From: Pseudomonadota bacterium
GTDB lineage: Bacteria > Chloroflexota > UBA5177 > JAJPKF01
DNA: 64,000 nucleotides
Reading direction: 5' to 3'
Assembly (NCBI GenBank): GCA_021323865.1
Contig: JAJPKF010000024.1
Location: forward strand, 9,207 to 73,206
Shown here piece after piece: positions 2,109-61,140 of this stretch. Made by a program: the position numbers and the translations under genes. The notes beneath the pieces are model-generated. The model saw only the letters and a list, made by a program, of their open reading frames with translations, had not been told where the DNA came from and did not search any database. Position 1 is the stretch's first letter, and every line of letters starts with the position of its first letter.

Positions 2109-4058
2109 ATGATTCGTAATCTTGCCGCCGGGCTCAGCGCCCTCGGCCTCATCCTGACCGGTTTTGCCTGGCATGGTGTGGCGCCGGTGCAGGCCAAGTC
2201 CAGGCCCGTCAAGCTGGGGCTGTACCACAACGGCTGGGACACCTACTATCGCAGCCCGTTCGGGGCCGCGCCGACCGACTCCAGGGTGACCCTCCGGCTA
2301 CGCAGCGCCACGGTGGTGACGAAGGCGACGCTCTATCTCCAAACGGAGAGCGGCTCGACCACCAAGCTGCCCATGCGTGTCTTCAAGCGAGGCAAGTCGG
2401 CAATCGTCTGGACGGTGACGACCAGACTCCCGTCCAAAGCGACGCAGCTCTCCTACTTCTTCCGGGCTCAGGCAGGCAGCACCGTTCGTTGGTACGGCGA
2501 CAACAGCGGTGTCGGCGAGGGAGGGCCGGGTCAGACCTACGGCAACGCCAACGACGTGGTCACGTACAGCCTCACCGTGTATCTGAAATCCTTCCATACG
2601 CCGGCCTGGATGAGAAATGCCGTGGTCTACCAGATCTTTCCCGACCGCTTTTTCAACGGCAACACCAAGAATGACCCCAAGAACGGTACCCGCTACGGCT
2701 ACATCACGGTGCGGTTTCACAAGCACTGGTCGGACCTTCCCGACCAGCCCTCATGCGGCTGCGACTTCTTCGGCGGCGATCTTCAGGGCATCATCGACAA
2801 GCTCGGCTATCTGCACAAGCTCGGCGTCAACGTCATCTACCTGAACCCCATCTTTCTGGCGCCGTCAAATCACAAATACGACACCAGCAACTTCAAGGCG
2901 ATCGATCCGGAATTCGGGACGCTCAAGACCTTCAAAGCGCTGGTGGGCGCGGCCAAGAAGCTGGGCATTCATCTGATCCTCGACGGCGTCTTTGAGGACA
3001 CGGGCAGCGACAGCGTCTACTTCGACAAGTACAGCCGGTTTCCCCACTCCCTCGGCGCCTACGAGTCCAAGAAGTCGCCGTACTATCCCTGGTACACCTT
3101 CTATCAATGGCCGGATAACTATGCCGACTGGAGCGGCGTGGACAGCCTGCCTCTCCTCAAGGAGAGCAACGCGGTCAAGGACTTTATCTTTCGCAAGAAG
3201 AGCTCGGTGGCCCAGTACTGGCCGGCACAGGGGGCGTCGGGTTGGCGCCTCGACTCTGCCAACAGTCTGAGCAACGGCTACTGGGAGCAGTTCCGAAGCG
3301 CCGTCAAGGCGGCCTATCCGCAGTCGGTGATGATCGGAGAGTACTGGCAGGATGCGCTGCCCTGGCTCATGGGGAACATGTGGGACGGCGTGGTCAACTA
3401 TCAGTTCCGGGAGCCGGTTCTCGATTTCTTCGCCAACGGTCAGGGCGCCCAAACGCCGACGCCCTACGGCGCCACCACCTTCCTCGAGAGCGAGATGGGT
3501 CTCATTGCCGAGTATCCTCGGCCGGCTATCGTCTCCTCGATGAACATCGTCGACTCGCACGATGTGGCGCGCATCCTGACTGACTTGAACGGCAGCAAGG
3601 CGGCACTGCGTCTCGTCGCGCTGTTCCAGATGACCTGGCTGGGCGCGCCCACCGTGTACTACGGTGACGAGACGGGAGTGATGGGCGCCTCCGATCCGGA
3701 CGACCGGCGGACGTTCCCCTGGTCGCACCAGGACAAGGCCCTCGAGCGCTATTACGCCAAGATCATCCATATCCGCCTGGGCCACGGCGCCCTCACAACC
3801 GGCTCGGTCACACCGCTCCTCAGCGCGGACGGCAAGCGATCGCTGGCCTTCCTGCGGCAGTCGGGCAGCCAGCGAATCGTCGTCGCGCTGAACGATAGCC
3901 ACCGTTCTCAGACCCTCAGCATTCCCGTGAGTCAGATCAAGAACGGCACCAAGTTAACCGAGCTGCTGAACGGCGGATCGCATACCGTGAGCAAGGGCCG
4001 GCTGCAGGTCAAGCTGGGGGCGCTCAGCGGCGCGGTTCTCGAGGCGGCCGGCCGGTAG
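2109..4058 (+). CDS. secreted GH13 alpha-amylase family enzyme (neopullulanase/cyclomaltodextrinase-like) with N-terminal beta-sandwich domain
   Basis: ATG 2109 is preceded by GGAGAGAGAG. The signal peptide is MIRNLAAGLSALGLILTGFAWHGVAPVQA. GH13 hallmarks are present: VVYQIFPDRF, GVNVIYLNPIF, GIHLILDGVFEDTG, GWRLDSAN, EYW, VDSHD. The track ORF (1917..) is over-extended upstream. Confidence 0.85.
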   Translation: MIRNLAAGLSALGLILTGFAWHGVAPVQAKSRPVKLGLYHNGWDTYYRSPFGAAPTDSRVTLRLRSATVVTKATLYLQTESGSTTKLPMRVFKRGKSAIVWTVTTRLPSKATQLSYFFRAQAGSTVRWYGDNSGVGEGGPGQTYGNANDVVTYSLTVYLKSFHTPAWMRNAVVYQIFPDRFFNGNTKNDPKNGTRYGYITVRFHKHWSDLPDQPSCGCDFFGGDLQGIIDKLGYLHKLGVNVIYLNPIFLAPSNHKYDTSNFKAIDPEFGTLKTFKALVGAAKKLGIHLILDGVFEDTGSDSVYFDKYSRFPHSLGAYESKKSPYYPWYTFYQWPDNYADWSGVDSLPLLKESNAVKDFIFRKKSSVAQYWPAQGASGWRLDSANSLSNGYWEQFRSAVKAAYPQSVMIGEYWQDALPWLMGNMWDGVVNYQFREPVLDFFANGQGAQTPTPYGATTFLESEMGLIAEYPRPAIVSSMNIVDSHDVARILTDLNGSKAALRLVALFQMTWLGAPTVYYGDETGVMGASDPDDRRTFPWSHQDKALERYYAKIIHIRLGHGALTTGSVTPLLSADGKRSLAFLRQSGSQRIVVALNDSHRSQTLSIPVSQIKNGTKLTELLNGGSHTVSKGRLQVKLGALSGAVLEAAGR

Positions 4059-4124
4059 CGGCGGCGACGTCGGGTCTGGCCTGTCTTCAGACCGCGGATG
4101 GGAGTATCGTGGGGTGAGAGAACG

Positions 4125-4922
4125 ATGACGAGGGTGGATTCGATGAACCGGGTGCTGGGCAAAGTCGCGGTGGTGCCGGCAGTGCTGCTGATGATCATGT
4201 CGGCCGGTGCCGGCGGACCCGTCCAGACACGGGCGGCCACCAATCCGGCGCTGCACCTTTTGAAGCAGTCGCTGCGAGTTTCGGCAGACAAGAAGGCGGC
4301 TCACGTTGTGGGCGGTCTCGGCGCTCGGATCTCCGACCACCTGGAAGGATTCACATTTTCGGTGACGGTTCGTGCCGGTGTCCGGGGCGATGTCGTAGAT
4401 CGCAGGCAGGGCCTGAGAGCGCACCTCAAGGGCCAGGAGCGCCTTGGTGGCTCGGCTCGGTCCTACAAGCTCGTGGTGGCGAACGGCAAGATTGCAAGCA
4501 AGTACCGCAAGACGGCGTGGGCCTGCACATCGCTCACCTCAGCCGGCTCGACGTTGGGTCTGGGCATGGGAACCATCACCCAGATGGCGGGCTTCGAGCG
4601 GAAGCTCAGGCGTGTGCTGCAGGTAACGGATCTGGGATCGACGACATTTCGTGGCGTACCGGTGTGGCATCTCCGCGCTACTATCCTCACGCGAATACCC
4701 ATGCGGACCACCGGCTCCTCGGGGAAGGTCAAGGTTACGCATCCGTGGGTCCACGTTCGAGCCAACTTCTGGATCAGCCGCAGCAACCAGACGGTTCGCC
4801 GAGTGACGGCGTTTGCGAAGATTCGGGCCAAGCAGAGCGCCGCGACGCTCCATCTTTGGGCTCGCTTCTCGCGCTACGGCGAGCACGTGCCGATCCACCT
4901 GCCGCCTGCCTGTCGCAAGTAG
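4125..4922 (+). CDS. hypothetical secreted protein (signal peptide), unknown function, in starch-utilisation locus
   Basis: The SD GGGTGAGAG precedes ATG 4125. The N-terminus has a hydrophobic signal (VAVVPAVLLMIMSAGAGGPVQTRAA). No recognisable domain. It is convergent with the ABC permease genes. Confidence 0.5.
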   Translation: MTRVDSMNRVLGKVAVVPAVLLMIMSAGAGGPVQTRAATNPALHLLKQSLRVSADKKAAHVVGGLGARISDHLEGFTFSVTVRAGVRGDVVDRRQGLRAHLKGQERLGGSARSYKLVVANGKIASKYRKTAWACTSLTSAGSTLGLGMGTITQMAGFERKLRRVLQVTDLGSTTFRGVPVWHLRATILTRIPMRTTGSSGKVKVTHPWVHVRANFWISRSNQTVRRVTAFAKIRAKQSAATLHLWARFSRYGEHVPIHLPPACRK

Positions 4923-4998: not shown

Positions 4999-5949
4999 CT
5001 ACCCCTTCACGGCTCCGCGAGACAGCCCGGCGACCAGGAATCGCTGCATGGAGAGGAAGACGATCAACAGCGGTAGCGAGCCGAGAACGGCCGCGGCCGC
5101 GAAGTCGGTCCAGTTCTGGGTGAAGGCGCTGTTGATGAAGCCGTGCAGGCCCAGCGCCATGGTGTAGTTGCTGGTGTTCTGCAGCAGGAAGCTGGCGACC
5201 AGGTATTCGCTGTACAGGCCGAACCACGTGAAGAGAAAGACCACCGCCATCATCGGCCGGGTCAGGGGCAGGATCACCCGGAGATAGGCCTGCAGCTTGG
5301 ACGCGCCGTCGACATACGCCGCCTCCTCGAGATCCCGGGGCAGCGAGTCGATGTAGCCCTTGAACAGCCAGGCCACGAAGGGCAGACCGCCGCCGATCAT
5401 GACCAGCGTGTAGCCCTGCAGCGTGTCGTATAGGCCGATCTTGTTGAGCAGGAACTGGTAGGCGATGAACGACATCTGGGCAGGGAACATCTGGATGAGC
5501 AAGAGGCCCATGAGTCCGTACTTGCGGCCCTTGAAGCGGAACCGGCTGAAGGCGTAGGCCATGGTGGCCACCAGCAGCACGGTGATGACGCCGACAGAGG
5601 TGCAGACGATCACCGAGTTTCTGATCCAGGTGACGAACCCCACGTTGAGGTTGGGGTCGAACAGCGCTCGGTAGTGGTCGAGCGTGAACCCGGTGGGAAA
5701 GATGGTGTTGGTGAAGTAGGTCCCCGGCTGGAAGGAGGTGCCCACCACCCAGACGGCCGGCACCAAGATCAGAAACATGACGATCCAGACGATGATGCGG
5801 CTGCTCCAGAGGAACACGCGCTCGCCGGTTCGCATCCGTCTCTTCGCGCGCGAGCGGCCCCTGATCCAGCCCAGACCGCGTCCGGCCTGGGGCGTGCCCA
5901 CGGCGGCCGCAGGGAGGGCTTGGGCGACGCCCTGGCTGGTGGGTTCCAT
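4999..5949 (-). CDS. carbohydrate ABC transporter permease (MalG-like, binding-protein-dependent inner membrane component)
   Basis: Six TM segments and the EAA-like loop (YIDSLPRDLEEAAYVDGASKLQAYLRVILPLTRP) of sugar ABC permeases. Its start overlaps the stop of the upstream permease (TGATG coupling). Confidence 0.85.
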   Translation of the reverse strand: MEPTSQGVAQALPAAAVGTPQAGRGLGWIRGRSRAKRRMRTGERVFLWSSRIIVWIVMFLILVPAVWVVGTSFQPGTYFTNTIFPTGFTLDHYRALFDPNLNVGFVTWIRNSVIVCTSVGVITVLLVATMAYAFSRFRFKGRKYGLMGLLLIQMFPAQMSFIAYQFLLNKIGLYDTLQGYTLVMIGGGLPFVAWLFKGYIDSLPRDLEEAAYVDGASKLQAYLRVILPLTRPMMAVVFLFTWFGLYSEYLVASFLLQNTSNYTMALGLHGFINSAFTQNWTDFAAAAVLGSLPLLIVFLSMQRFLVAGLSRGAVKG

Positions 5950-6923
5950 CAGTCAACCTCCTGAAATGCGCCGCTGAGCCGCATGTTGATGGAGCTGAGG
6001 GTTCCGATGATGAAGAAGATCAGGATCCCGTAGGCACAGGCCAGCCCCCACTCGTGCAGTGTGTAGGCGACGCTGTAGGTATAGGTTGGAAGGATATCGG
6101 TTGCGCCCGCGGTGACCGACGTCACGGGCCCGCCACCCGTCAGCAGATAGACAACGCCGAAGTTGTTGAGGTTGTAGGCGAAGGTGGCGATGACCAAGGG
6201 CAGGGAGGCGGTCCGGAGAAGCGGGAACGTCACGCGGAAGAACTTCTGGAACCCGTTGGCGCCGTCGATCTCGGCCGCCTCGTGAACGTCGGGCGGGATG
6301 CTCTGTAAGGCGCCCAAACAGGCGGTCATCATAAACGGGTAGCCCAGCCAGAAGTTGACCAGGAGCACGGAGAAACGGGCCCAGAACGGGTCGCCTAAAA
6401 AGGGGATGCTGGGCACGTGGAAGACGTTCACCAGAATGGTGTTGATCATGCCGCCACCGGTGAAGTTCTGGAGAATTCCGCCCCAGGCGAGGATGGCGAT
6501 GGTGCCCGGGAGGGCCCACGGCACGATGAGGATCGTGCGGTAGAGATTGCGCTCCCACATGTTTTCGTTGTTCAAGAGATAGGCGAGAACCAGTCCGCCG
6601 CCAAAGTTAAGTGCGGTGGTCACGGCAGCGAAGATGACGGTCCACTCGAAGACGCCCAGGAACGCCTGAGGCTGAAAGACCGTGAAGATCTTCACGAAGT
6701 TGTCGAGACCGATGAAGCTGAAGTTGAGGTCGTGGGCCTCACTGTAGTTGGTCATCGACATATAGATGGTGAAGAGGATGGGGAAGAAGCTGGCCACCAC
6801 CATGAAGGCCAGCGACGGAGCGATGTACCCGTACGGATACAGACCGTCGAGGAACCGGCGGCGGCGCCGCACGGGTTTGACCACCGGGGCGTCCGCGGGC
6901 GCGGGCGGGGATATGGCGGCCAT
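5949..6923 (-). CDS. carbohydrate ABC transporter permease (MalF-like)
   Basis: Polytopic membrane protein with the conserved permease loop (DVHEAAEIDGANGFQKFFRVTFPLL). The strong SD AAGGAGGAAG lies upstream of the ATG at 6923. Confidence 0.85.
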   Translation of the reverse strand: MAAISPPAPADAPVVKPVRRRRRFLDGLYPYGYIAPSLAFMVVASFFPILFTIYMSMTNYSEAHDLNFSFIGLDNFVKIFTVFQPQAFLGVFEWTVIFAAVTTALNFGGGLVLAYLLNNENMWERNLYRTILIVPWALPGTIAILAWGGILQNFTGGGMINTILVNVFHVPSIPFLGDPFWARFSVLLVNFWLGYPFMMTACLGALQSIPPDVHEAAEIDGANGFQKFFRVTFPLLRTASLPLVIATFAYNLNNFGVVYLLTGGGPVTSVTAGATDILPTYTYSVAYTLHEWGLACAYGILIFFIIGTLSSINMRLSGAFQEVD

Positions 6924-7003: not shown

Positions 7004-8260
7004 CTACGCTCCGGCCTTGCGGGCCTGAGCGGCGGCGGCCTTGAGGTTCTTGGCAGCCGAGCCGTTGTTCTGAAGGGTCAGGGCGATTGCCTTCTGGGCA
7101 GGTGACCAGATGGGCGACATGAAGGGAACGTTCGGAAGCGGCACACTGTGCTTGAAGCCGTTGCTGTACTGCTTCAGCTCCGCATTCTTCGACACCTTCT
7201 TGAGGGCGGCCTTGGTGGCCGGGATGCGGGCGCCGGCCTTGAAGAGGGCCAGCTCACAGTGCAGGCTCAGGTACGAGGCCAGGCTCTGCGCCGCGGAAAC
7301 GTGCTTGGAGAACTTGTTCACGACCATCGTCTGGACGCCGAGGAACGGCTGGCCGAACTTGTGCTGCGCGTCGCGCGGCAGTGGGGCGAAGCCGTACTTG
7401 AGGTGCGCCGCGCGCCAGGTCGGATCCGACCAGGGGCCGTCGAGCACGATGGCGGCGTTGCCGGACGCCAGCTGGGCGCCGTAACCGCCGCTGTTGCTGT
7501 TGCTGCTCAGCCAGTCGCTGACCGGGGTCCCCGACTCGTCGATGACCTTCTTCAGGTAGTTCAGTCCTCGGATCGAGCCACGATTGTCGAGGAGGACCTT
7601 CTTGGTGTAGCCGCTGCTGCTGTGCTTCAGCGCGCCGCCGCCATAGGCGGTGAAGAAGTCGTAGTCATAGTAGAAGTTGTCCCACTGCCACACCATGCCG
7701 AGCTTGCCGGTCTTTGCGTGGAACTTGTGGGCCCACTTGGCGACCTTGTCCCAGGTGTAGGCCTTGCCCTTGAACAGGGAGGCCGGGGCCAGCTTCTTGT
7801 TGTAGTAGAGGCCCACCATCTCGAGCGCCCACGGGTAGCAGAAGGTGTGTCCCTTGATGGTGCAGCCGGAGACGGCCGAGGCGACGTACTTGCTCTTCTG
7901 GAGCTTGGACGGCGCGACGAGCTTGGCGCCATAGTCGGCGCCGGCCTGGTCGTCGGGCATCATGACGATGTCCGCGGCCTTGTGGGGGTCGGCGGTGAAG
8001 GCGTTGTTGGAGCCGTTGGCGGGCTGGGCCGGCTCGGTAACGGTGTTACCGGTCTTCTTGGCCCACTGCTGGGCGATCTTGTTCATCGCCACCCGCTCCG
8101 GGGTGTTGACGGGCGTCTGGTTGAAGAAGTCCCAGATGACGAGGTGCACACCCTTCTTGGCCGGGTGCTGGGCCGAGGCGACGCTCAGCGTGCCGAAGAC
8201 CATGGCCAAGGCCACAAGGGTCCCGACCAGGACGTTCAGCGACTTGTAGTTACGCGGCAT
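7004..8260 (-). CDS. extracellular solute-binding protein (family 1) of sugar/maltodextrin ABC transporter
   Basis: N-terminal signal MPRNYKSLNVLVGTLVALAMVFGTLSVASAQ. Size and composition are typical of MalE-like sugar-binding proteins. It sits in an operon with two sugar permeases. Confidence 0.85.
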   Translation of the reverse strand: MPRNYKSLNVLVGTLVALAMVFGTLSVASAQHPAKKGVHLVIWDFFNQTPVNTPERVAMNKIAQQWAKKTGNTVTEPAQPANGSNNAFTADPHKAADIVMMPDDQAGADYGAKLVAPSKLQKSKYVASAVSGCTIKGHTFCYPWALEMVGLYYNKKLAPASLFKGKAYTWDKVAKWAHKFHAKTGKLGMVWQWDNFYYDYDFFTAYGGGALKHSSSGYTKKVLLDNRGSIRGLNYLKKVIDESGTPVSDWLSSNSNSGGYGAQLASGNAAIVLDGPWSDPTWRAAHLKYGFAPLPRDAQHKFGQPFLGVQTMVVNKFSKHVSAAQSLASYLSLHCELALFKAGARIPATKAALKKVSKNAELKQYSNGFKHSVPLPNVPFMSPIWSPAQKAIALTLQNNGSAAKNLKAAAAQARKAGA

Positions 8261-9956
8261 GAATGGATTCCTCCAAGTGAATATCTAGCGATTGGATTTC
8301 GACCGGCTGCTTCGCTTCTCTACCCGATTGCTCCTCCTTTCTGCTCGTGCTTTCTACTCGATGTTCGTTCCCCTGCGCAAATACGGCCGCCCGGCTGGGA
8401 AGGACCTCGACGCGGCCGTTGTTGATGGTGCCGGAATCGTCGGCGCGGACCCAGATGTCGTTCCTGGCGAGGACGTGCGCGGCGAACTCATACTTGCCCG
8501 GAGGCAAGGAGCCGAGCGTCACGCCGTAGACATTGTGACCGTCGCTGGAGCTGATGAGCCGCATGGGGCTGTTCTTGGGACTGGGCCATACGGAGCCGAA
8601 GAGGGCCACGCGATCCCAGTGCAGCAGGGCCTTCACGCCGTCGTACCCGGCGGCTTGGCCATCCTCCAGCTCCACCTCCACGGTCACGGAAACGGGATCG
8701 CCGCTGCCCACACGGAGGAAGCCTGGCTTGAGATTCCCCGCCCAGGCCACCCTGGCATCGCTGGGCTTGAGGATCATGCCCAGCTCGGCCAGCTCGGGCC
8801 ATACCGGCGTCTCTTCGAAGGCCGGCTGTGCCAGGCCGGCGTCGTCGACGTACATGGCGTGCTCGGCGACGCCGAAGAATTGCTCGAGCACCAGCGTCGC
8901 CGCTCCGATACAGGAGGCCCGCGGGCCCAGCTTTCCGGGCACCGGCTGTGGCTGCGGCATTCCGAACAGCGCCGGCCGCCGGGTCAGCGCTTCCTTCAGA
9001 TGGGCAAGGGTGGTCTCGCCGCACTCGAAGAGGCGGCCGCCCAGGACGATCATGTCCGGGCGCAGCTGGCGGCAGACGTTGTTGATGCCGACCGCCAGAT
9101 AAGCCATGGCCTCGTCGAGGGCATTCAGAGCAATGGGATCGCCACCGCGCACGGCCTCCATAACAACGTCGAAGCTCACCGACTCCCAATCGCCACCGGC
9201 GCGGTCGGCGATGCCGGTGGCGCCTCCCAGCTTGGAAGCGGCGACCGTGCGGCGCACGATGGAGCCCACGGAGGCCACGGCCTCCAGACAGCCATAGTTG
9301 CCGCACAGACATGGCGGCCCATCGACGTCGATGACCGTGTGGCCCACCTCGCCGGCCGCGCCGTCCACCCCCCGGTACAGGGCGCCGTCGATCACCATGC
9401 CCGAGCCGATGCCGTGATCGACGTAGAGATAGACGAGCGAGCCCGTGCCGTGCAGCCGGCTGCCCGCCCCATATCGAAACTCCGCCAGGGCAGCGAGATT
9501 GGAATCGTTCTCGAGTGTGACCGGCAAGCCCAGGCGCCGCTCGAGCGTCTCGGCCAGCGGAATCCGGCTCCAGCCGGGAAACCCGGGAATGCCGATGACC
9601 GTTCGCCCGCCCGTAACCGGGCCGGGACAGCCCACCCCGACGCCCAGGACCTTCGCCGTGTCGATGCGAGCCAGCCGGTTGACCTGATCGGCGGCCTCGA
9701 CCACCGTCGAGGAGACGGAATCCGGGTCCGCCCCGCCCTGCAGGGGCAGGCTGGTCTCCGACCGGATGTTGCCCACCAGGTCCGTCAGGACCGCCTCGAC
9801 CTGCGTGGGCCGGATGTTCACGCCAATGGCAAAGTGAGCGTCGGGCTCCAGCTCCACCAATGTCGGCGGACGACCGCCGGTCGAGGGGCCCAGACCGATT
9901 TCTCGAATGAGCCCTCGACGGGAGAGCGAGCTGAGCACGTTGAGCACCGAGGACAA
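8250..9956 (-). CDS. ROK-family (NagC/Mlc-like) regulator fused to a C-terminal glycogen/starch-binding (AMPK-beta/CBM48-like) domain; N-terminal wHTH extends upstream of the called TTG start
   Basis: The ROK core carries the zinc motif GHTVIDVDGPPCLCGNYGCLE. The C-terminal ~100 aa (VSVTVEVELEDG...LPPGKYEFAAHVLARNDIWVRADDSGTINNGRVEVL) matches the carbohydrate-binding module (CBM) pattern of AMPK-beta/CBM48. The in-frame sequence upstream of 9956 (to the stop at ~10158) encodes SARLARYNRAVVLDLIRRFGPVSKSELADRSGLALSSVLNVLSS, which is the ROK winged helix. The real start is therefore upstream, but no ATG/GTG/TTG is present there. Confidence 0.8.
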   Translation of the reverse strand: MSSVLNVLSSLSRRGLIREIGLGPSTGGRPPTLVELEPDAHFAIGVNIRPTQVEAVLTDLVGNIRSETSLPLQGGADPDSVSSTVVEAADQVNRLARIDTAKVLGVGVGCPGPVTGGRTVIGIPGFPGWSRIPLAETLERRLGLPVTLENDSNLAALAEFRYGAGSRLHGTGSLVYLYVDHGIGSGMVIDGALYRGVDGAAGEVGHTVIDVDGPPCLCGNYGCLEAVASVGSIVRRTVAASKLGGATGIADRAGGDWESVSFDVVMEAVRGGDPIALNALDEAMAYLAVGINNVCRQLRPDMIVLGGRLFECGETTLAHLKEALTRRPALFGMPQPQPVPGKLGPRASCIGAATLVLEQFFGVAEHAMYVDDAGLAQPAFEETPVWPELAELGMILKPSDARVAWAGNLKPGFLRVGSGDPVSVTVEVELEDGQAAGYDGVKALLHWDRVALFGSVWPSPKNSPMRLISSSDGHNVYGVTLGSLPPGKYEFAAHVLARNDIWVRADDSGTINNGRVEVLPSRAAVFAQGNEHRVESTSRKEEQSGREAKQPVEIQSLDIHLEESIHAA

Positions 9957-10176
9957 CGCGAGCCCGCTGCGATCCGCCAGCTCCGACTTGGAGACCGGTC
10001 CAAATCGGCGGATAAGATCGAGAACGACGGCCCGGTTGTAGCGAGCAAGGCGCGCCGATTGCTGCTGAGGTATCTCCCTGCTCCCCAGTGAACTTTCTTC
10101 AACTGATGGTAGAAGTTCACCATCAGGATAGGGCCAAACGCGCGAGAAGTCAACCCCTCACCCAGATGAATATTCA

Positions 10177-10635
10177 ATGAATGAAGGAAGTACGAACTTC
10201 CGTTCCACCGAGGAGCGGCGATACGCGACCCTCAGCCGCGTGGAGCCGGATGTTGTGGAGCTGGCGGTGGAAAGCGGTATTCAGCGTACCTGGACCCGGC
10301 GGGCGCCCGAGGAATCGCTCGATCAGCTCTTTCAACGCTGTCTGACGTGGTTGAGCCACGAGGGCTGGCGGCCGATCAGCCATCACAATGCGGGCGCCGC
10401 CGGCGTGGTGCTGGCGCGCGTTCCCTACCCCGCCGGCGCCCGGCTCTCGACCTTCGGCGTCCTCCGGTTCGTCGACGCCGATTGCCTGGTGCTTTCGGTC
10501 AGCGGCTCAACCATGCGTCGTTGGGACGGTGACACCCGTGAACGGCTGCTGGATCGTGCCATTCAAGAGCTGCACCGAGAGGGTTGGATGGTGCACCGAC
10601 GATACAGCCGTGGCGCCACCGTCGTCAGGGCCTGA
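10177..10635 (+). CDS. hypothetical protein
   Basis: 152-aa ORF with high GC3 that starts in an AT-rich intergenic region. No recognisable domain. It is terminated by a strong hairpin at 10651-10688. Confidence 0.4.
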   Translation: MNEGSTNFRSTEERRYATLSRVEPDVVELAVESGIQRTWTRRAPEESLDQLFQRCLTWLSHEGWRPISHHNAGAAGVVLARVPYPAGARLSTFGVLRFVDADCLVLSVSGSTMRRWDGDTRERLLDRAIQELHREGWMVHRRYSRGATVVRA

Positions 10636-12243: not shown

Positions 12244-13143
12244 GTGATACTCGGGAAGAGCGAGATCATCCGCCACCTCCTGGTCGCTTTGTTCTGCGGC
12301 GGTCACGTGCTCTTCGAGGACGTTCCGGGAACCGGCAAGACCACCCTCGCCCGAGCCCTTGCCCGCTCCATCGACTGTGACTTCAAGCGGGTGCAGTTCG
12401 CGCCCGACCTGCTCCCCTCAGATGTCACGGGCACCAACTTCTTCAACATGAAGTCGAGTGAGTTCGAGTTCCGACCCGGTCCGGTCCTGACCAATGTGCT
12501 GCTGGCCGATGAGATCAACCGGGCCACGCCCCGTACGCAGGCAAGCCTCCTGGAGGCCATGGAGGAGCGGCAGGTGACGGTCGACGGCGTGAGCCGGCCG
12601 CTTCCGCGACCATTCATGGTGCTGGCGACGGAGAACCCCATCGAGCTGGAGGGAACGTTTCCACTCCCCGAAGCGCAGGTGGATCGTTTCTTCATGCAGC
12701 TGTCCCTCGGCTATCCCGACCTCGCCTCGGAGAGCGAGATGCTGCTGTCGCAGGAGCGGGTGCACCCACTGGACTCTCTGCAGCCGGTCATCACGGGAAC
12801 TGAGGTGGCCGATCTCGAGCAGTCGGTTCGCGCGGTCACGGTTCACGACGACATTCGCGACTACATCCTGCAGCTCGTGCGGAGCACGCGTGAGCGCACG
12901 GAGCTGTCACTGGGCGCCAGCCCCCGCGGCTCGCTGGCGCTCTACCGAGCCACCCAGGCCCTGGCCGCCATGTCTGGTCGCGACTATGTCCTTCCCGACG
13001 ACGTCAAAGCCATGGCCGTGGAGGTGCTGGCCCACCGTCTGATGCCCTCCGCGGAGGGACGGCTGAAGCGTATCGAGCCGGCTGCCGTCCTGCACCAGAT
13101 CCTGTCCGATGTCGAGGCGCCGGTCGAGCCGCTCGCCTCCTAA
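12244..13143 (+). CDS. MoxR-family AAA+ ATPase (5' end apparently frameshifted)
   Basis: Walker A is GGHVLFEDVPGTGKTT and Walker B is LLADEINRA, in a MoxR-type arrangement. The conserved N-terminal helix (...TADRLQTNLELVILGK) is encoded in-frame upstream of GTG 12244 without a start codon. ATG 12156 in the +2 frame could supply the N-terminus if a 1-nt indel exists near 12205-12212. Confidence 0.85.
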   Translation: MILGKSEIIRHLLVALFCGGHVLFEDVPGTGKTTLARALARSIDCDFKRVQFAPDLLPSDVTGTNFFNMKSSEFEFRPGPVLTNVLLADEINRATPRTQASLLEAMEERQVTVDGVSRPLPRPFMVLATENPIELEGTFPLPEAQVDRFFMQLSLGYPDLASESEMLLSQERVHPLDSLQPVITGTEVADLEQSVRAVTVHDDIRDYILQLVRSTRERTELSLGASPRGSLALYRATQALAAMSGRDYVLPDDVKAMAVEVLAHRLMPSAEGRLKRIEPAAVLHQILSDVEAPVEPLAS

Positions 13144-13149
13144 GCCGCG

Positions 13150-14457
13150 ATGGCCACCGTCCTGCTCGACCTCGGCGCCGGCTTCCTGCTCATCCTGGCG
13201 CCCCTGCTGCTGTTCCTCTGGTACTGGAACAACCGAGAGCTGACCACCCGCGAGTGGGCGTTACTGTGCTTCGTAATCCTTGCCGGTGGCGTCCTGGCGC
13301 GCATCGCCGTGGTGGCCCTCTTGGCGGCCCTGATCCTCGTTGGGATCGGCGTCGCGTGGCTGTGGAACCGCGTGATCCTTACCGACGTGGACTACTCGCG
13401 GTCGTTTGCCCAGACCCACCTCTTTCCCGGCGAGTCGACCACCGTCACCTGGACCTTCCGGAACGACAAGCCGCTGCCGGTCAGCTGGCTGCGCTGGCAG
13501 GAGGGCGTGCCGATTCACCCCTTCGGGGCCCTTCGACATGGGGAGGGCCTGCAGATCGAGGATATCGACATCCGCATCATCCTTGACGGCGGCGCCGACG
13601 GCATCGACGAGGTCACGTCGATCGGCGGCTTTCAGACGCTGATCAAGACCGCTCGAATCTCGGCGCTTCGGCGCGGGTATTACCGCTTCGGGCCCACGCA
13701 GTGGGACGCCAGCGACGTCCTCGGGCTCTACCGAACGACCAAACGGTTTGAGGCCGACTCCGCGCTGACCGTCTATCCGCGATTGTTCTCGCCGGAACAG
13801 CTTCAGCTACCGACCGAGGCCATTCTGGGCGATCTCCGGCGACGCAGCTTTGTGGAGGACCCGAGCTGGTATCGCGGCGCCCGCGACTACCGCTCGAGTG
13901 ATCCCATGAAGACCATCGACTGGCTGGCGACGGCCCGCACGCGCCGTATGCAGGTCAAGGTCTTCGAGCCGACCGTACATCCCAAGCTTATGATCCTGGC
14001 AAACCTACACGCCTTCGAGCGGATCTCTCGAGGCGTGATCACCGAGTACATGGAGGATGTGATCAGCGCCGCCGGATCCATCGCCCGCTGGGGTCTGGAG
14101 ACCGGTTTCGAGGTGGGACTCCACTCCAACGGGGCCCTGCCGGGCAGCCACATGCCGCTGCGCATCCCGCCCTCGGCCCGTCCCGAGCAGCTGTTTCTCA
14201 TCCTCGACTACCTGGCCAGGATCATGTTGATCGTCGACCGAAACGTCGAGGATCTCATTCGTCGGGACGTGCAGGACCTCCCGCACGGCAGCAGCCTGGT
14301 GATCTGCACCAACGTCATTACCCAGGGGATGACCTCGGTGCTGACGGACATCGGCCGCCATCGCAGGGTCACCGTGCTCCTCATCGACAATGATACGCGG
14401 TTCAGCATTCCCAATGTGACCGTCACCCAGCTTCAGACGGGACGCAGGGCGGCCTGA
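13150..14457 (+). CDS. DUF58 domain protein (MoxR-associated, vWA-like)
   Basis: Two N-terminal TM helices and the DUF58 signature YRGARDYRSSDPMKTIDWLATARTRRMQVKVFEPT. It lies immediately downstream of moxR. Confidence 0.85.
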   Translation: MATVLLDLGAGFLLILAPLLLFLWYWNNRELTTREWALLCFVILAGGVLARIAVVALLAALILVGIGVAWLWNRVILTDVDYSRSFAQTHLFPGESTTVTWTFRNDKPLPVSWLRWQEGVPIHPFGALRHGEGLQIEDIDIRIILDGGADGIDEVTSIGGFQTLIKTARISALRRGYYRFGPTQWDASDVLGLYRTTKRFEADSALTVYPRLFSPEQLQLPTEAILGDLRRRSFVEDPSWYRGARDYRSSDPMKTIDWLATARTRRMQVKVFEPTVHPKLMILANLHAFERISRGVITEYMEDVISAAGSIARWGLETGFEVGLHSNGALPGSHMPLRIPPSARPEQLFLILDYLARIMLIVDRNVEDLIRRDVQDLPHGSSLVICTNVITQGMTSVLTDIGRHRRVTVLLIDNDTRFSIPNVTVTQLQTGRRAA

Positions 14458-15836
14458 TGACCATAGTCACCTCCTTCGTCCGGTTCCTGTTGCGCACCGC
14501 CTGGCTCCTGCCGGTGGCATGGATGTACGGAGGCAACCTGGCCGGCTCGATGGGAGTCGTTCTCCCCGTGATGGTGCTGATCGCGTTTGGGACCGCGCTG
14601 ATCTTCCTCTGGCCACTGCTGTCCACGCTCGTCAGACGACTGGGACTGAGCCGTTTCTCAACGGCGTTTGTCATCGGGCTCGGCGTCCTGGGAGGCACCA
14701 TCGTCGCGGTAGGGAACATCTCGTTCGGCGTTCACACGAATGCAGGCACGTATGCCTTGGAATGGCTGCTGCTCCTGGTCATCGGCAGCGTCGCGTTCTC
14801 CTCCGTGGTCGGCGAGCAGACCTATCCGGGTATCAGTCGCGACTTCATCCTCGGCACCCTCGGGTTGCTCCTGGTGGTGGCCTTCTCCTACACGCTGGGG
14901 AGCCGGAGTCAGATGCACTTCGGCGCCCTCGTCTACGCCGGGTTCATCGGCTATGTGCTCCTTGGTGTGGCGGGTTTGGGTTTTGCCCGGCGGTACGCTC
15001 CAGACGAGTTCGCCACGGACATGCGCAGCGGCAGCCTCGAGCCGGACTGGCTGCTCACGGTCGTCCTCCTGATCGGCGGCCTCGGCATTGCCAGCCTGGT
15101 CTTCGCCCAGCTCTTTGCCTTCGACATCATGGGCGCCATTGGCCATCTCACCCAGCCGCTGCAGGACCTGGCCATCCAGGGCCTCAAGGTCGTTGCGACG
15201 TCAATCGCGGCATTCCTCGTCTGGCTCATCCACATCCTGGGCATCAAGCCGCGGCACCACGCCGTCCATCCCACGGTCCGACGTGCGCCGCAGCGAAACC
15301 CGATTCCCAGCCGGCATCTCCATTCCAACCGGGTGCCCTCGTGGATCCTGCTGACGCTCGAGGCGCTGCTGCTGGCCGCCGTGGCCATTGCCGCTCTTTC
15401 TGTCCTCACCCTCATCTTCCGCTCGCTCCTGGGCCTGCGCCTTTCCACGCTCAAAGGCGAGAGGCGCGTGTCGGAGTGGTCATGGCGGAAGATGACGGGG
15501 TGGCTGTTCCGGCAGGGCCAAACACAGCTGCGGAGTCTGCTTCCCGAGCACGGTCTCCGGCTTCCCCGGCGCCGCAGGCTGGATACGGTACGCGACGTAT
15601 ATCGGGCGTTTCTGCACCTTGGTGGGGAGCGCGGCCGCGCGCGTGTGGCAGCGGAAACAGGGCTCGAATACAGCCTCGACGTCGAGGCTCGCTGGCCCGC
15701 CAGCGAGGAGGGGCTTGACCGCTTGAATGCGATCTACATGGCAGAGCGGTATGGATTGAGGGAGCCCGACGCGGAACGAGTGGCCGCCGCGAGGGCGGAG
15801 CTGGAGCGCTTCGACGAGATCTCCCGGGAGCCCTAG
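14457..15836 (+). CDS. polytopic membrane protein with C-terminal DUF4129-like domain (third gene of MoxR module)
   Basis: About 8 TM helices, then a cytoplasmic C-terminus (TVRDVYRAFLHLGGERG...LDRLNAIYMAERYGLREPDAERVAAARAELERF) resembling DUF4129. Its start overlaps the DUF58 stop (TGATG). Confidence 0.6.
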   Translation: MTIVTSFVRFLLRTAWLLPVAWMYGGNLAGSMGVVLPVMVLIAFGTALIFLWPLLSTLVRRLGLSRFSTAFVIGLGVLGGTIVAVGNISFGVHTNAGTYALEWLLLLVIGSVAFSSVVGEQTYPGISRDFILGTLGLLLVVAFSYTLGSRSQMHFGALVYAGFIGYVLLGVAGLGFARRYAPDEFATDMRSGSLEPDWLLTVVLLIGGLGIASLVFAQLFAFDIMGAIGHLTQPLQDLAIQGLKVVATSIAAFLVWLIHILGIKPRHHAVHPTVRRAPQRNPIPSRHLHSNRVPSWILLTLEALLLAAVAIAALSVLTLIFRSLLGLRLSTLKGERRVSEWSWRKMTGWLFRQGQTQLRSLLPEHGLRLPRRRRLDTVRDVYRAFLHLGGERGRARVAAETGLEYSLDVEARWPASEEGLDRLNAIYMAERYGLREPDAERVAAARAELERFDEISREP

Positions 15837-38599: not shown

Positions 38600-38787
38600 G
38601 CATACATGGCCTTCGGGGCAGGGTGAGACGAGGAATCGCCAATTCCCGATCGGCGGTAGAGCCCGCGAGCGCGTCAGCGCAGGATCTGGTGAGACTCCAG
38701 AGCCGACGGTACAGTCCGGATGGAAGAAGGCACCATGCCCGCTCCCGGCGGGTCCTTCCCCGAAGTGCGTGCACTCGGGGTTTTTCA
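38600..38787 (+). ncRNA. FMN riboswitch (RFN element) with terminator/SD-sequestering expression platform
   Basis: The aptamer (~38608-38730) matches the RFN consensus block by block: CUUCGGGGCAGGGUGA, AUCGGCGGUAGAGCCCGCGAGC, GGAUCUGG...GAGCCGACGGUACAGUCCGGAUGGAAGAAGG. The B. subtilis ribD leader has ...UUCGGGGCAGGGUGAAAUUCCC-ACCGGCGGUA...AGCCCGUGAC...GCCGACAGUGAAAGUCUGGAUGGGAGAAGG for comparison. It is followed by the terminator at 38757-38784. Confidence 0.85.
38757..38784 (+). terminator. intrinsic terminator of FMN riboswitch expression platform
   Basis: CCCCGAAGUGC-gu-GCACUCGGGG (10-bp stem with one bulge) followed by UUUUU. The 3' arm contains the GGGG that would serve as the SD for the TTG at 38788. 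Confidence 0.75.
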
Positions 38788-42203: not shown

Positions 42204-44393
42204 CTAGCGCACCTGGGCGGGCAGCTCCGGTCCGGCCAGATGCCGTTCCACATGGCTGGCCGGATGGATGCTGATGTCGAGGTTGTCCGGGTTGTCCTTG
42301 ATCTCGAGCAACAGGGAGCCATTCTCGCGGATGATACGGAGACCAAGCTTGGAGCCGCAGATGGACATGCCGTCGACATCCAGCTCGTCGAGACCGGCGG
42401 GCAGGACGGGCGTGATGTCCACGTGTCGCGAGAACGGGCGCGGAGCGATGCCCAGCCACGTCTGCAGGAGGAGGAAGATGACGCCGGCCGACCAGGCCTG
42501 TGGGCGGCAGGCGTCGGGCTGGCGCGCGAGCACGCCGGCCGTTTCGCGGGTCACGCCGCAGTACACCTCCGGCCACCGGCGGTACTCGAAGTACTGTGAC
42601 GCGTCGACCAGCGCTTCATGCACCTGCTGGGCGGCCCGAACGTAGCCGTACTTCTTCAGTCCGGCCGCCATGAGGGAGTTCTCAAACGGCCAGATCGATC
42701 CGTCGTGATAGCTAAGGGCGTTGAAGGCCCGCTCGTCGGTGGCCATGGTACGGATACCCCAGCTGGAGCACATCTTCGGATCCACCAGCGTTTCGGCGAC
42801 GGCTTGCGCATGCTCCTCGTCGATGAGACGGGCCCAGAGGCAATGGCCCGGATTGGAGGTGACCACGTCGACCTGGCGGTGGTGGCCGTCGAGGGCCATG
42901 GCGTAAAAGTTCTTGTTCGGCATCCAGAACTCCTCGTTGAAGCGCTGCTTGAGCGCGTCCGCCCGCTCCTGGAGCCGCCGCCCTTCCGCCCCCACGCGTT
43001 CTGAGGGCGGCATCGCGGCATACAGGTCGGCCCACAGCTGCAGCGCTCGGTAGAGGTAGCCCTGGACCTCCGACAGGCTGATGGGATGATCTCGGACAAT
43101 GGAGCCGTCGGAGTAGACGACGGCAATGGAGCTGTCCTTCCAGCCCTGATTGAAGAGCCCCACGGTCAGCGCCGCTGATCCAGGAGCCGGCGGCGTGTGG
43201 GCCTTGTATTGGATGTAGCCGGATCCATCCATATCGCCGTCGGTGTCGATCCACTTCCAGGCTGCATCCAGATGGGGTCGGATCTCGCGGAACCATTCGA
43301 GATCCTGCGTCCAGCGCAGGTACTCGGCGGCCAGAACCAAGAAGAGCGGCGTGGCGTCGACCGAGCCGTAGAACAGGCCGAATGGAACCTCGCGCAACCT
43401 GGCCAGTTCCCCGGTGTGCATCTCATGCATGATCTTGCCGGGCTGTTCGTCGTTCCAGGGATTGTTCTCCTTGCCTTGGCGGTCAGCCAGGAAACAGAGT
43501 ACGTCTCGAGCGATGTTGGGGTTCCAAGACAGCGTCTGCAGCGCCGTGATGATGCAGTCACGACCGAAGGGAACGGCAAAGCGGGGAAGTCCCGCGCAGG
43601 GCACCCAGCCGTCCGGAAACTCGGTCATCAAGGCTTCCAAATCGTCCGTGCTTCGGCGCAGGATGGAGTCGAGGGTGGCGTTGCTCACCAGGAAGCGGGT
43701 GCCCTGGTCGAACCACGGTGGCTTCGGCTTACCGGAGATTTCCGGCTGGGCCGAGAGGTGCCCGCCGTGCGTCGCCTCCGACTTGAGCTGCAGCTCGAGA
43801 CGCACGGTCTGCCGCTCGTTGACGTCGAGCTGGATGTCGAAGTACATGGTGGAGCCTTCGAATCGCGTGATATCGGGCTTGGTTCGAATACGGGTCGTGT
43901 CGCGGACGTCGTCCAACCCCACGTAGGCCAGGTGAACCGTGTTGTGGGTGCTCTCGGGGTCCATTAGCCGGCCGCGCTTCATTCGCTTGACCCCGCGCGC
44001 CTCGAAGGAGTCAAAGAAATCGCTGCCGATTTCGATGGACAGCTCCAGGTCCACCGCTTTCCCCGACCAGTTGACGAGGGTCATCTCCATGTGAACGTCG
44101 GCGAGGCCGCTGGATCGTTCCTGCAGGGTGTTGCGCTGGAGGATGCCGACCGCTCGGGTTGGAATGCCGTCGAGCGACGGGTTGGTGAATAGGTAGGAGA
44201 GCTGGAAGAGATGCTCCTCGGTCGAGCCAAGGAGCACCGGTTCACAGCCGTTGATTCGGATCTGAAAGCGGCTGAGAAAGCGGGTGTCGGCCAGGAACAG
44301 GCCCTGGCTGGAGGCCGCCTCCGGATTCATGGAGCCGTCCTCGGCCGTGGCCAGGACGATGGGGCCCTCTTTGATGATGCGGCGGTGCTGCAT
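42204..44393 (-). CDS. amylo-alpha-1,6-glucosidase (GDE C-terminal domain) family, (alpha/alpha)6-barrel glycoside hydrolase
   Basis: 729 aa with GDE_C-like blocks (GKIMHEMHTGE, DATPLFLVLAAEYLRWTQD, WKDSSIAV, GHCLWARLID, SYHDGSIWPFEN). Confidence 0.7.
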   Translation of the reverse strand: MQHRRIIKEGPIVLATAEDGSMNPEAASSQGLFLADTRFLSRFQIRINGCEPVLLGSTEEHLFQLSYLFTNPSLDGIPTRAVGILQRNTLQERSSGLADVHMEMTLVNWSGKAVDLELSIEIGSDFFDSFEARGVKRMKRGRLMDPESTHNTVHLAYVGLDDVRDTTRIRTKPDITRFEGSTMYFDIQLDVNERQTVRLELQLKSEATHGGHLSAQPEISGKPKPPWFDQGTRFLVSNATLDSILRRSTDDLEALMTEFPDGWVPCAGLPRFAVPFGRDCIITALQTLSWNPNIARDVLCFLADRQGKENNPWNDEQPGKIMHEMHTGELARLREVPFGLFYGSVDATPLFLVLAAEYLRWTQDLEWFREIRPHLDAAWKWIDTDGDMDGSGYIQYKAHTPPAPGSAALTVGLFNQGWKDSSIAVVYSDGSIVRDHPISLSEVQGYLYRALQLWADLYAAMPPSERVGAEGRRLQERADALKQRFNEEFWMPNKNFYAMALDGHHRQVDVVTSNPGHCLWARLIDEEHAQAVAETLVDPKMCSSWGIRTMATDERAFNALSYHDGSIWPFENSLMAAGLKKYGYVRAAQQVHEALVDASQYFEYRRWPEVYCGVTRETAGVLARQPDACRPQAWSAGVIFLLLQTWLGIAPRPFSRHVDITPVLPAGLDELDVDGMSICGSKLGLRIIRENGSLLLEIKDNPDNLDISIHPASHVERHLAGPELPAQVR

Positions 44394-60865: not shown

Positions 60866-61140
60866 GGTGATCGTGCTAGGCGGGGAGCTAGCGGTGCCCT
60901 GTACCCGCAATCCGCTATAGCGGGGCGTAATTCCGCGCTTGAGGCCTGGCTCAGCCAACACTGTTCGGTTTGTTCGACGTTGAAGACCGGGTTCTGCGCG
61001 GCGGAGCCCCGTGAACCCCGTCAGGTCCGGAAGGAAGCAGCGGTAAGCGGCCAGCTCCGGGTGACGCAGAGGAGCCTGGTCTGAGCCGGCATGCTGGATA
61101 AGCTGAGTGGACCAGTGTCGAGAGTGCGGTGCACGATCAC
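60866..61140 (+). ncRNA. ffs: signal recognition particle RNA, large Bacillus-type (with Alu domain)
   Basis: The domain IV core CCCGUCAGGUCCGGAAGGAAGCAGCGG is present. The Alu-domain region GAUCGUGCUAGGCGGGGAGCUAGCGGUGCCCUGUACCCGCAAUCCGCUAUAGCGGGGC aligns almost base-for-base with B. subtilis scRNA. The 5'/3' closing helix is GGUGAUCGUGC...GCACGAUCACC. The protein ORF 60770-61084 covering it is spurious. Confidence 0.8.

Follow-up and report, generated by a model that had tools for sequence, protein, structure and literature searches.

In one uncultured Chloroflexota lineage, a conserved C-terminal module has been added to a ROK core of an already known type. In the 64-kb stretch of DNA analyzed here (the window), the protein begins with a winged helix, followed by a complete ROK core including the zinc motif, a linker of ~40 aa, a beta-sandwich of 125 aa and a disordered tail. 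Judged from its sequence, it most likely belongs to the class of ROK-family transcriptional repressors and would act as one, and it may read alpha-glucan chains directly; the module family is a candidate new carbohydrate-binding module (CBM) family. The usual view of ROK repressors is that a single cleft senses small sugars, and a tethered domain resembling glucan-binding modules suggests a route by which a cytoplasmic transcription factor could sense oligomer length or polymer stores.

The ROK-CTD regulator gene lies on the minus strand, in a stop-to-stop frame from 10157 to the TAA at 8252-8250. Its maximal extent is 8250..10088, from an in-frame CTG at 10088, with ATA 10073 as the alternative start; residue numbers given here refer to the 607-aa form starting at this ATA. 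From the upstream stop to TTG 9956, the frame in the window holds no ATG, GTG or TTG, and for lack of a canonical start before this TTG the listing of open reading frames gives just 568 aa. The 37 codons 5' of TTG 9956 show 17 synonymous and 3 non-synonymous differences from the orthologue at locus L003, a synonymous excess which shows that they are coding, and translation probably starts at CTG 10088 or ATA 10073. Orthologues begin with MAIGQQQSARLARYNR or MKGQQPSRVARYNR; in the window gene the canonical start codon is gone (ATG to AGG). Because its start codon is non-canonical, expression of the DNA-binding form in this genome is not certain. The public gene call begins at GTG 9947, gives 565 aa and truncates the winged helix. 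With half of the DNA-binding domain dropped in this way, such proteins come to be annotated automatically as sugar kinases.

The winged helix-turn-helix DNA-binding domain (9900..10034, minus strand; residues 14-58) was matched by Pfam HTH_IclR, MarR and HTH_24 (HTH_IclR E 4.7e-5 at residues 14-58), and the N-terminus aligns with those of Lmo0178 and Mlc from residue 10-12. The protein possesses this domain provided that translation begins upstream of 10034; selection marks the region as coding, and dN/dS of the domain is 0.06-0.19. The ROK sugar-kinase-like sensor core (8883..9827, minus strand; residues 83-397) matched PF00480 with E 1e-48 and 166.8 bits (cut-off 22.9) over profile positions 2-293 of 294. 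On the same strand it carries the ENDSN motif (9498-9515), the GEVGH motif (9339-9353) and the zinc-binding motif GHTVIDVDGPPCLCGNYGCLE (9282..9344; residues 244-264), which fits the pattern used for the ROK repressor class, GHx(9-11)CxCGxxGCxE, and aligns with the zinc motif of Lmo0178. Pfam and the reading of motifs thus agree with the first-pass annotation, which had described a winged helix and a complete ROK core with a zinc motif. The ATP phosphate-1 motif, which discriminates between repressors and kinases, is degenerate: the regulator reads AIGVNIRPT (9804-9830, minus strand; residues 82-90) in place of DxGGT, and Lmo0178 reads VVSVKVEEE at the aligned position.

The same annotation had also considered a ROK kinase tethered to glycogen, and the ROK fold, the zinc motif and the intact ENDSN and GEVGH sugar-binding motifs would suit an active sugar kinase held on glycogen or maltodextrin by the module. 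We regard this as highly improbable, since the phosphate-binding motif reads VNIRPT where the repressor Lmo0178 has VKVEEE, the winged helix is conserved under strong purifying selection, the NCBIfam glucokinase model scores 162.7 against a cut-off of 260, and the gene heads an operon behind a conserved dyad.

The best PDB relative of the regulator was Lmo0178 of Listeria monocytogenes (PDB 5F7P/5F7Q/5F7R; E 1.5e-38, query residues 12-402), the repressor of the lmo0178-0183 operon for utilization of an alpha-glucan (cycloalternan). Both proteins have a winged helix, a ROK core, the zinc motif and a degenerate kinase motif, and lmo0178 likewise comes first in its operon, ahead of genes for ABC permeases, a binding protein and alpha-glucosidases (PMC12330269). 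However, Lmo0178 comes from Bacillota, not Chloroflexota, and with 404 aa ends with the ROK core, having neither linker nor C-terminal beta-sandwich. Mlc and NagC of Escherichia coli possess the same two-domain core but are about 400 aa long without an extra domain, and Mlc is controlled by PtsG sequestration, not by an appended module. The NCBIfam matches to NagC (E 4e-42) and Mlc (E 4.5e-38) were both far below the equivalog cut-offs.

The regulator is the first gene of a maltodextrin-type, MalEFG-like ABC operon, as the first-pass annotation had proposed. Its stop overlaps by 11 nt the ATG (8260) of a gene for an extracellular solute-binding protein (SBP_bac_1; 7004..8260, minus strand), an overlap that had been noted correctly, and two ABC permease genes follow (4999..6923, minus strand; 5949-6923 MalF-like, 4999-5949 MalG-like). 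MalE, MalF and MalG were the best NCBIfam matches of these transporter genes, all below the curated cut-offs. A GH13 enzyme of the maltodextrin glucosidase/cyclomaltodextrinase type (2109..4058, plus strand) is convergent to the operon. It had been described as an adjacent secreted amylase; a signal-peptide-like N-terminus is indeed present, but one open reading frame intervenes. This enzyme shows 34% identity to the GH13 part of protein P0040, whose N-terminus has a domain of the same type as the regulator's module. The order of regulator, binding protein and permeases was found in L003, L004, L007, L008, L009 and a JGI contig (both permease genes being counted where the contig reaches far enough); GH13 genes lie next to this set or diverge from it. 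At every inspected locus the fusion gene heads a MalEFG-like ABC operon with GH13 genes beside it.

A sigma-70-type promoter precedes the regulator gene (10125..10153, minus strand; TTGACT, 17-nt spacer, TATCCT). Its -35 hexamer is invariant across the five loci of alignment A4 and reads TTGACA or TTGACG in L007-L009, and all seven other loci examined have TATGAT as the -10 hexamer. Downstream of the -10 hexamer and ahead of the start codon lies a candidate dyad operator, ACTT-N4-CA-N5-TG-N4-AAGT (box B; 10092..10116, minus strand), whose 3' half overlaps the purine-rich ribosome-binding region. Box B has one match in the 64-kb window (0.04 expected) and exactly one, in the same place, in each of L001, L002, L003, L007 and L008; L004 and L009 have a variant ending in AAGG. 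The left half of this motif recurs as ACTTCCTTCAttcaTTGAAT (box A; 10172..10191, minus strand) upstream of the -35 hexamer. The operators of Mlc and NagC are dyads that frequently occur in pairs. Further operator-like matches at 43136 and 49213 are inside long open reading frames and were dismissed as chance. It is less likely that box B is an RNA hairpin: six of eight loci share the same arms (ACTT/AAGT, CA/TG), and where the arms differ, in L004 and L009 alone and at one arm position, there is no compensatory change.

The same fusion was found in 46 protein clusters (505-608 aa) from Chloroflexota/Dehalococcoidia metagenomes, and in one species-level genome (L003) by a scan of genome contigs. 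In all 46 clusters the ROK part shows at least 46% identity to the window protein, whereas ROK relatives whose identity in this part does not exceed 43% are 390-451 aa long and have no module, so that the architecture is as unusual as first supposed. It had been cautioned that an assembly error might have joined two genes, and the gene is indeed split into pieces in contigs L001 and L002. However, most genes are fragmented in these error-prone contigs, pointing to frameshift errors, whereas a single unbroken frame runs through the window, L003, L004-L006 (independent sequencing runs), L007-L009 and the JGI contig, and 46 clusters carry both parts. The chance that assembly or gene calling fused a ROK gene with an independent gene downstream of it is therefore negligible, and this reading is already refuted by independent assemblies.

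Residues 398-607 matched nothing in Pfam, NCBIfam or PDB sequences. They comprise a linker predicted to be disordered (8760..8882, minus strand; pLDDT below 50; dN/dS 0.54-0.65), with a short motif, (E/Q)P(A/S)FE.T.VWP (8793-8828), conserved in alignment A1; the module (8385..8759, minus strand; residues 439-563); and a disordered tail (8253..8384, minus strand), which overlaps the start of the binding-protein gene and has a conserved RKE motif (8331-8345). AlphaFold2, given an alignment of 34 sequences, predicted residues 439-563 as a confident all-beta sandwich (mean pLDDT 93.5, pTM 0.86); the modelled fold is Ig-like and resembles known alpha-glucan-binding modules. The extra C-terminal domain of the first-pass annotation is thus real, but its assignment to the AMPK-beta/CBM48 type did not hold. 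Neither PF02922 (CBM_48) nor PF16561 (AMPK1_CBM) matched the window module or any of the 34 family members at E <= 10, and hhalign against the AMPK-beta1 glycogen-binding domain, its sequence entered by hand, gave a probability of 1.5% over 18 columns. The motif L..LPPG.YEF, once taken as evidence of CBM48, is generic; through the same hairpin the family profile also catches PKD and FN3 domains in the PDB.

Other comparisons pointed to no curated family either. An alignment by hhalign with glucoamylase CBM20 (sequence also entered by hand) was colinear over 75 columns and not significant (probability 0.9%), and profile A3 was unrelated to the N-domain of the window's own GH13 enzyme (0.1%). 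The C-terminal 205-236 aa, profile A2 and each A2 member found nothing significant in Pfam, NCBIfam or PDB sequences, including any curated CBM or starch-binding family. Below threshold, the commonest Pfam families over the 34 members were CBM_20 (four members, best E 0.0059), X25 (three, 0.0028) and CBM53 (three, 0.0072). The CBM48 of AMPK beta, the CBM21 of PTG/PPP1R3C and the CBM20 of laforin have no significant sequence relationship to the module, and these eukaryotic proteins are not transcription factors.

HMMER searches of 1.84 billion proteins revealed homologues of the module with E-values of 1e-23 to 1e-4; the exhaustive search gave 35 matches at E <= 1e-3, 27 of them outside ROK fusions. 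A GH13, pullulanase or GH57 context was found for 7-10 of these 27; P0030, P0039 and P0042 resemble N-terminal fragments of such enzymes. The homologue is carried by two GH57 enzymes (P0023 and P0033), two GH13 enzymes (P0024 and P0040) and two pullulanase-type proteins, P0041 and P0038, in which it sits just before Pullulanase_N2 (immediately so in P0038); CBM41 fills this slot in Klebsiella-type pullulanases. In P0036 the match overlaps X25 repeats. Ranked by E-value, the closest non-ROK relatives (P0016-P0021) are uncharacterized secreted proteins containing PT-rich linkers, and fusion to an FGE-sulfatase domain was seen in one relative; membership in the family is not restricted to alpha-glucan enzymes. 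A word-indexed search with A3 returned ten proteins, all already known.

The accessory modules of the six alpha-glucan enzymes (the GH13 ones being neopullulanase-like), which have a 'W-V-G-N' pattern, are true homologues of the regulator module (E 7.3e-10 to 7.4e-4 over the whole library). They can be aligned with it end to end, and the non-ROK members of A3 are 23-32% identical to the ROK form. The family signature is W.GN..P, LHW..V..FG..W, PM, Y..T, G.YEF, W and NG, and aromatics W6, W48, W58, Y78, Y90 and W103 are common to the ROK form and to the copies borne by enzymes (W58 and Y90 invariant, the other four widely conserved in the alignment). However, the enzyme modules are N-terminal or internal, secreted and attached to catalytic domains, whereas the regulator form is predicted to be cytoplasmic. 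A dN/dS of about 0.2 indicates purifying selection on the regulator module, which is 61% identical between the window and the distant orthologue in L004 (ROK core 44%).

On the basis of these results, we give about an even chance to the explanation that the protein is a ROK repressor which regulates its own operon and with it a maltodextrin-type cluster for uptake and degradation, and that its added starch-binding-domain-like beta-sandwich binds maltodextrin or glycogen; here repression, the nature of the effector and the binding of carbohydrate by the module are inferred. In the absence of substrate, the protein would bind the box B dyad, which overlaps the transcription start and the ribosome-binding region, as well as box A, a half-related site upstream of -35, and so shut off its own operon. 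Imported alpha-glucan oligosaccharides would relieve repression: the ROK cleft, with its ENDSN and GEVGH sugar-contact motifs kept, would bind a glucosyl unit, and the tethered module would bind the remaining alpha-1,4-glucan chain or cytoplasmic glycogen. The effect might be chain-length selectivity, avidity or localization of the regulator on glycogen. Somewhat more tentatively, with a chance rather below even, the module could be genuinely alpha-glucan-binding and found a new CBM family common to Chloroflexota GH13, GH57 and pullulanase enzymes. Uptake of maltodextrin would in that case be tied to the length of the chain or to how full the glycogen store is.

It is rather unlikely, with an appreciable residual chance, that the module is instead a structural or oligomerization Ig-like domain without a carbohydrate role, holding two dimers together to bridge box A and box B; its likeness to enzyme accessory modules would then reflect shared ancestry of a spacer domain. 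However, other ROK repressors oligomerize without such a domain, and the long disordered linker would be odd for a fixed interface. Moreover, the many conserved residues of polar or aromatic character (HWDR, PKNSP, W58, W103 and NGR), partly common to the enzyme-borne copies, suggest a ligand surface, and the accessory-module relatives occur in alpha-glucan-active CAZymes and in no other CAZyme classes. A protein-protein interaction domain, coupling the repressor to another component, for example the shared ABC ATPase or a glycogen or maltodextrin enzyme, seems quite improbable. The related ROK repressor Mlc (PDB matches 1z6r and 9srt), which is sequestered by PtsG, offers a precedent, and MalT held by MalK would be a further parallel; an ATPase gene is missing from the operon, and both the linker motif and the RKE motif of the tail are conserved. 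On the other hand, no partner could be identified, the data indicate no specific interaction, and homologous modules on secreted alpha-glucan enzymes would be left unexplained.

If the module binds glucan and founds such a family, the ROK fusions would be, to our knowledge, the first one-component bacterial transcription factors to read a cytoplasmic glucan chain via a CBM. Literature searches found nothing relevant on fusions of ROK proteins with a CBM or starch-binding domain and no recently founded CBM family matching the module, and full-text searches gave no description of a bacterial DNA-binding regulator sensing glucan via such a module. The idea of sensing oligomer length or polymer stores has eukaryotic precedents in AMPK and in the phosphatase 1 subunits that target glycogen. 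In the RsgI-type anti-sigma factors of Clostridium thermocellum, a CBM sensor fused to a regulator controls genes; there the CBMs lie outside the cell on an anti-sigma factor that spans the membrane, whereas the whole of the present regulator is predicted to be cytoplasmic and would itself bind DNA. The domain family, absent from Pfam 2025, is found repeatedly, both on enzymes (GH13, GH57 and pullulanase) and on secreted proteins that are abundant in Chloroflexota. A proteobacterial label for the lineage was rejected, because the window encodes an SRP RNA of the large type and because the sigma factor encoded there falls in clusters of at least 90% identity with proteins of Chloroflexota MAGs.

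The regulator gene lies in a minus-strand frame that is open from the stop codon at 10160-10158 to the TAA at 8252-8250. In its product, numbered from an in-frame ATA at 10073, Pfam identified winged-helix families at residues 14-58 and a ROK match spanning residues 83-397 (E 1e-48). The product also has the zinc motif of ROK proteins (GHTVIDVDGPPCLCGNYGCLE), and residues 398-607 had no match in Pfam, NCBIfam or PDB sequences. Thus, the first-pass annotation was correct in describing a winged helix, a ROK core with the zinc motif and an extra C-terminal part. Both sugar-contact motifs (ENDSN and GEVGH) were found, and VNIRPT occupies the place where ROK kinases have the phosphate-binding DxGGT; a tethered kinase is unlikely. 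For glucokinase, NagC and Mlc, the NCBIfam scores all fell far under the cut-offs. In otherwise disordered regions, a linker motif, (E/Q)P(A/S)FE.T.VWP (8793-8828, minus strand), and an RKE motif of the C-terminal tail (8331-8345, minus strand) were conserved; both may be docking motifs.

The start of the gene is unusual. Downstream of the preceding stop, the first in-frame ATG, GTG or TTG is TTG 9956; the mechanically called ORF is therefore 568 aa long and lacks half of the winged helix. The database entry P0059 gives the same protein (100% identical) as a 565-aa product from GTG 9947. Compared with L003, a related locus, the 37 codons that precede TTG 9956 contained 17 synonymous and only 3 non-synonymous differences, so they are translated. 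Orthologues begin MAIGQQQSARLARYNR or MKGQQPSRVARYNR, and where L003 and a second related locus (L001) have ATG, the window has AGG in the alignment, which may be a base-call error. Candidate starts are CTG 10088, 4 nt past a conserved purine run (GAAGAAAG), and ATA 10073, both in frame. It should be noted that no canonical start within 9947-10088 (minus strand) would take in the whole winged helix, and that the orthologues P0064, P0066, P0070, P0072, P0076 and P0090 were likewise called too short.

A search with the ROK part alone retrieved 908 proteins at E ≤ 1e-40, the best 120 of which were listed. Among these listed matches, an HMM of the C-terminal module (residues 439-563) identified the module in 46 of 117 newly retrieved proteins. 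These were 505-608 aa long when complete, and their ROK parts all shared 46% identity or more with that of the window protein; listed proteins with at most 43% identity there were ordinary 390-451-aa ROK regulators. From these sequence comparisons, the fusion is real and marks out a clade. The first-pass annotation had raised the possibility of an assembly artefact. The gene is indeed split in L001 and L002, contigs in which most genes are fragmented, but independent assemblies (L003, L004-L006, L007, L008, L009 and a JGI contig) carry it unbroken and full-length, and an artefact is excluded. Moreover, the module is under purifying selection (dN/dS ∼0.2), and relative to the distant L004 orthologue it was 61% identical, compared with 44% for the ROK core. 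The named sources of fusion members were Chloroflexota and Dehalococcoidia MAGs. The sigma-70 protein of the window clusters at ≥90% identity with a protein from a Chloroflexota MAG. The window also carries a large-type bacterial SRP RNA (60871-61136, plus strand; 175 bits), which speaks against the name 'proteobacterium' in the record of the related L003 MAG.

With regard to the identity of the module, the earlier assignment to the CBM48/AMPK-beta type did not hold: CBM_48 and AMPK1_CBM were reported by Pfam for none of the family members, and hhalign against the AMPK-beta1 domain aligned only an LP.G.Y.F hairpin (probability 1.5%). The motif behind that assignment is non-diagnostic, because it is through the same hairpin that the family profile matches PKD and FN3 domains in PDB entries. 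AlphaFold2, using a 34-sequence alignment, predicted a confident sandwich of approximately eleven short beta-strands; sequence homology is stronger evidence on module identity than this predicted fold. The family has no model in Pfam 2025. In a permissive Pfam search with the 34 members, the three most frequently matched families were CBM_20, X25 and CBM53, all three starch-binding and all sub-threshold. An alignment with glucoamylase CBM20 was colinear over 75 columns and matched the G.W, Y/W, LP.G..EY.F, W and N-R positions, although it was not significant.

When 1.84 billion representative proteins were searched exhaustively with HMMER, 35 were matched at E ≤ 1e-3, comprising 8 ROK fusions and 27 other proteins. 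Several of the latter were alpha-glucan enzymes: GH57 enzymes (P0023 and P0033); a GH13 enzyme with an N-terminal module at residues 34-161 (P0040), its GH13 part 34% identical to that of the window; an amylopullulanase-like protein that carries the module twice, next to CBM26, X25 and CBM48 (P0024); pullulanase-type proteins with the module immediately before Pullulanase_N2 (P0041 and P0038); and apparent N-terminal fragments of such enzymes (P0030, P0039 and P0042). In an X25-repeat protein (P0036) the match overlaps an X25 repeat. Five secreted proteins with PT-rich linkers (P0016-P0019 and P0021) had two tandem copies, and P0022 had one copy fused to an FGE-sulfatase domain. In P0035, an Fn3-repeat protein that also shows a fragmentary GH66 match, the hit covers a short repeated segment and not a full module, and no clear member of other CAZyme classes was found among the 35. 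The closest non-ROK relatives (P0016-P0019, P0021, P0026, P0031, P0034 and P0037) were secreted proteins with PT-rich linkers, which often had the module twice in tandem, together with MAM-like domains and a membrane anchor at the C-terminus.

As the most probable reading, at a little under an even chance, we suggest that this appended starch-binding-domain-like module binds alpha-glucan chains in the cytoplasm, either imported maltodextrins or glycogen. Our confidence is limited because this reading rests on homology and context; rival roles for the module would be oligomerisation or protein-protein interaction. Searches of the full-text literature found no description of a ROK regulator fused to a carbohydrate- or starch-binding module, and no recently founded starch-binding CBM family matching the module. 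The ROK repressor chassis is ordinary; what is new is the conserved additional module, with the domain family that it reveals.

The genomic context agreed with the earlier proposal that the regulator gene heads an ABC transporter operon close to a GH13 gene. A solute-binding protein gene followed the regulator gene in every locus inspected, then two permease genes wherever the contig reached far enough, and GH13 genes were downstream, divergent or nearby. In the window, the transporter proteins had MalE, MalF and MalG as their best NCBIfam matches, and the GH13 enzyme had maltodextrin glucosidase or cyclomaltodextrinase; since all were under the equivalog cut-offs, the term 'maltodextrin-type' applies at the level of families. 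Among solved structures, the ROK part was closest to Lmo0178 of Listeria (E 1.5e-38), reportedly described by Light and co-workers as a repressor of a cycloalternan/alpha-glucan pathway. The Lmo0178 gene heads an operon that also encodes ABC permeases, a binding protein and alpha-glucosidases (PMC12330269), and the window regulator similarly comes first in an operon with ABC permeases and a binding protein. PMC10303287 refers to the study of that pathway by Light and co-workers.

The regulator promoter (TTGACT-17-TATCCT, 10153-10125, minus strand), whose -35 hexamer is invariant in five aligned loci, is flanked by two conserved boxes. Box B (10092-10116, minus strand) is a dyad of the form ACTT-N4-CA-N5-TG-N4-AAGT, placed after the -10 hexamer and before the start codon. 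The pattern occurs once in the 64-kb window (0.04 expected) and a single time, in the equivalent position, in each of L001 (1128-1152), L002 (8858-8882), L003 (8717-8741), L007 (8966-8990) and L008 (7828-7852); L004 and L009 have a variant ending in AAGG. A protein-binding site explains box B better than an RNA hairpin does, because the arms are identical in 6 of 8 loci and never covary, the AAGT to AAGG change in L004 and L009 affecting one arm position. Box A (10172-10191, minus strand), upstream of the -35 hexamer, repeats the left half of the dyad and the inner CA/TG. Together, the two boxes form a candidate pair of operators through which the ROK protein would naturally be expected to regulate its own operon. 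We have high confidence that the protein is a ROK repressor of the maltodextrin-type cluster, with autoregulation by inference.

Several neighbouring features were also observed. A small conserved protein of unassigned family (10177-10635, plus strand; 142-152 aa across the window, L002 and L003; ...GWRPISH...ARVPY.AG.KL...RRY..GATVVR) is encoded co-directionally with the ROK gene in L002 (8343-8771) and L003 (7275-7703) and is inverted in the window, where its annotated ATG falls within box A. A 274-aa ORF (4098-4922, plus strand) separates the GH13 gene from the end of the ABC operon; its N-terminus resembles a signal peptide or membrane anchor, and neither Pfam nor NCBIfam gave a match. In L002, the corresponding place (14187-15020) is taken by an unannotated gene of about the same size. 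Three ORFs (12244-15836, plus strand) lie upstream of the sigma-70 gene, the first of them AAA-type ATPase-like and the third a polytopic membrane ORF, and the syntenic L002 genes had MoxR/AAA and weak DUF58 matches (Pfam). Finally, an FMN riboswitch was identified at 38605-38735 (plus strand; 94 bits).
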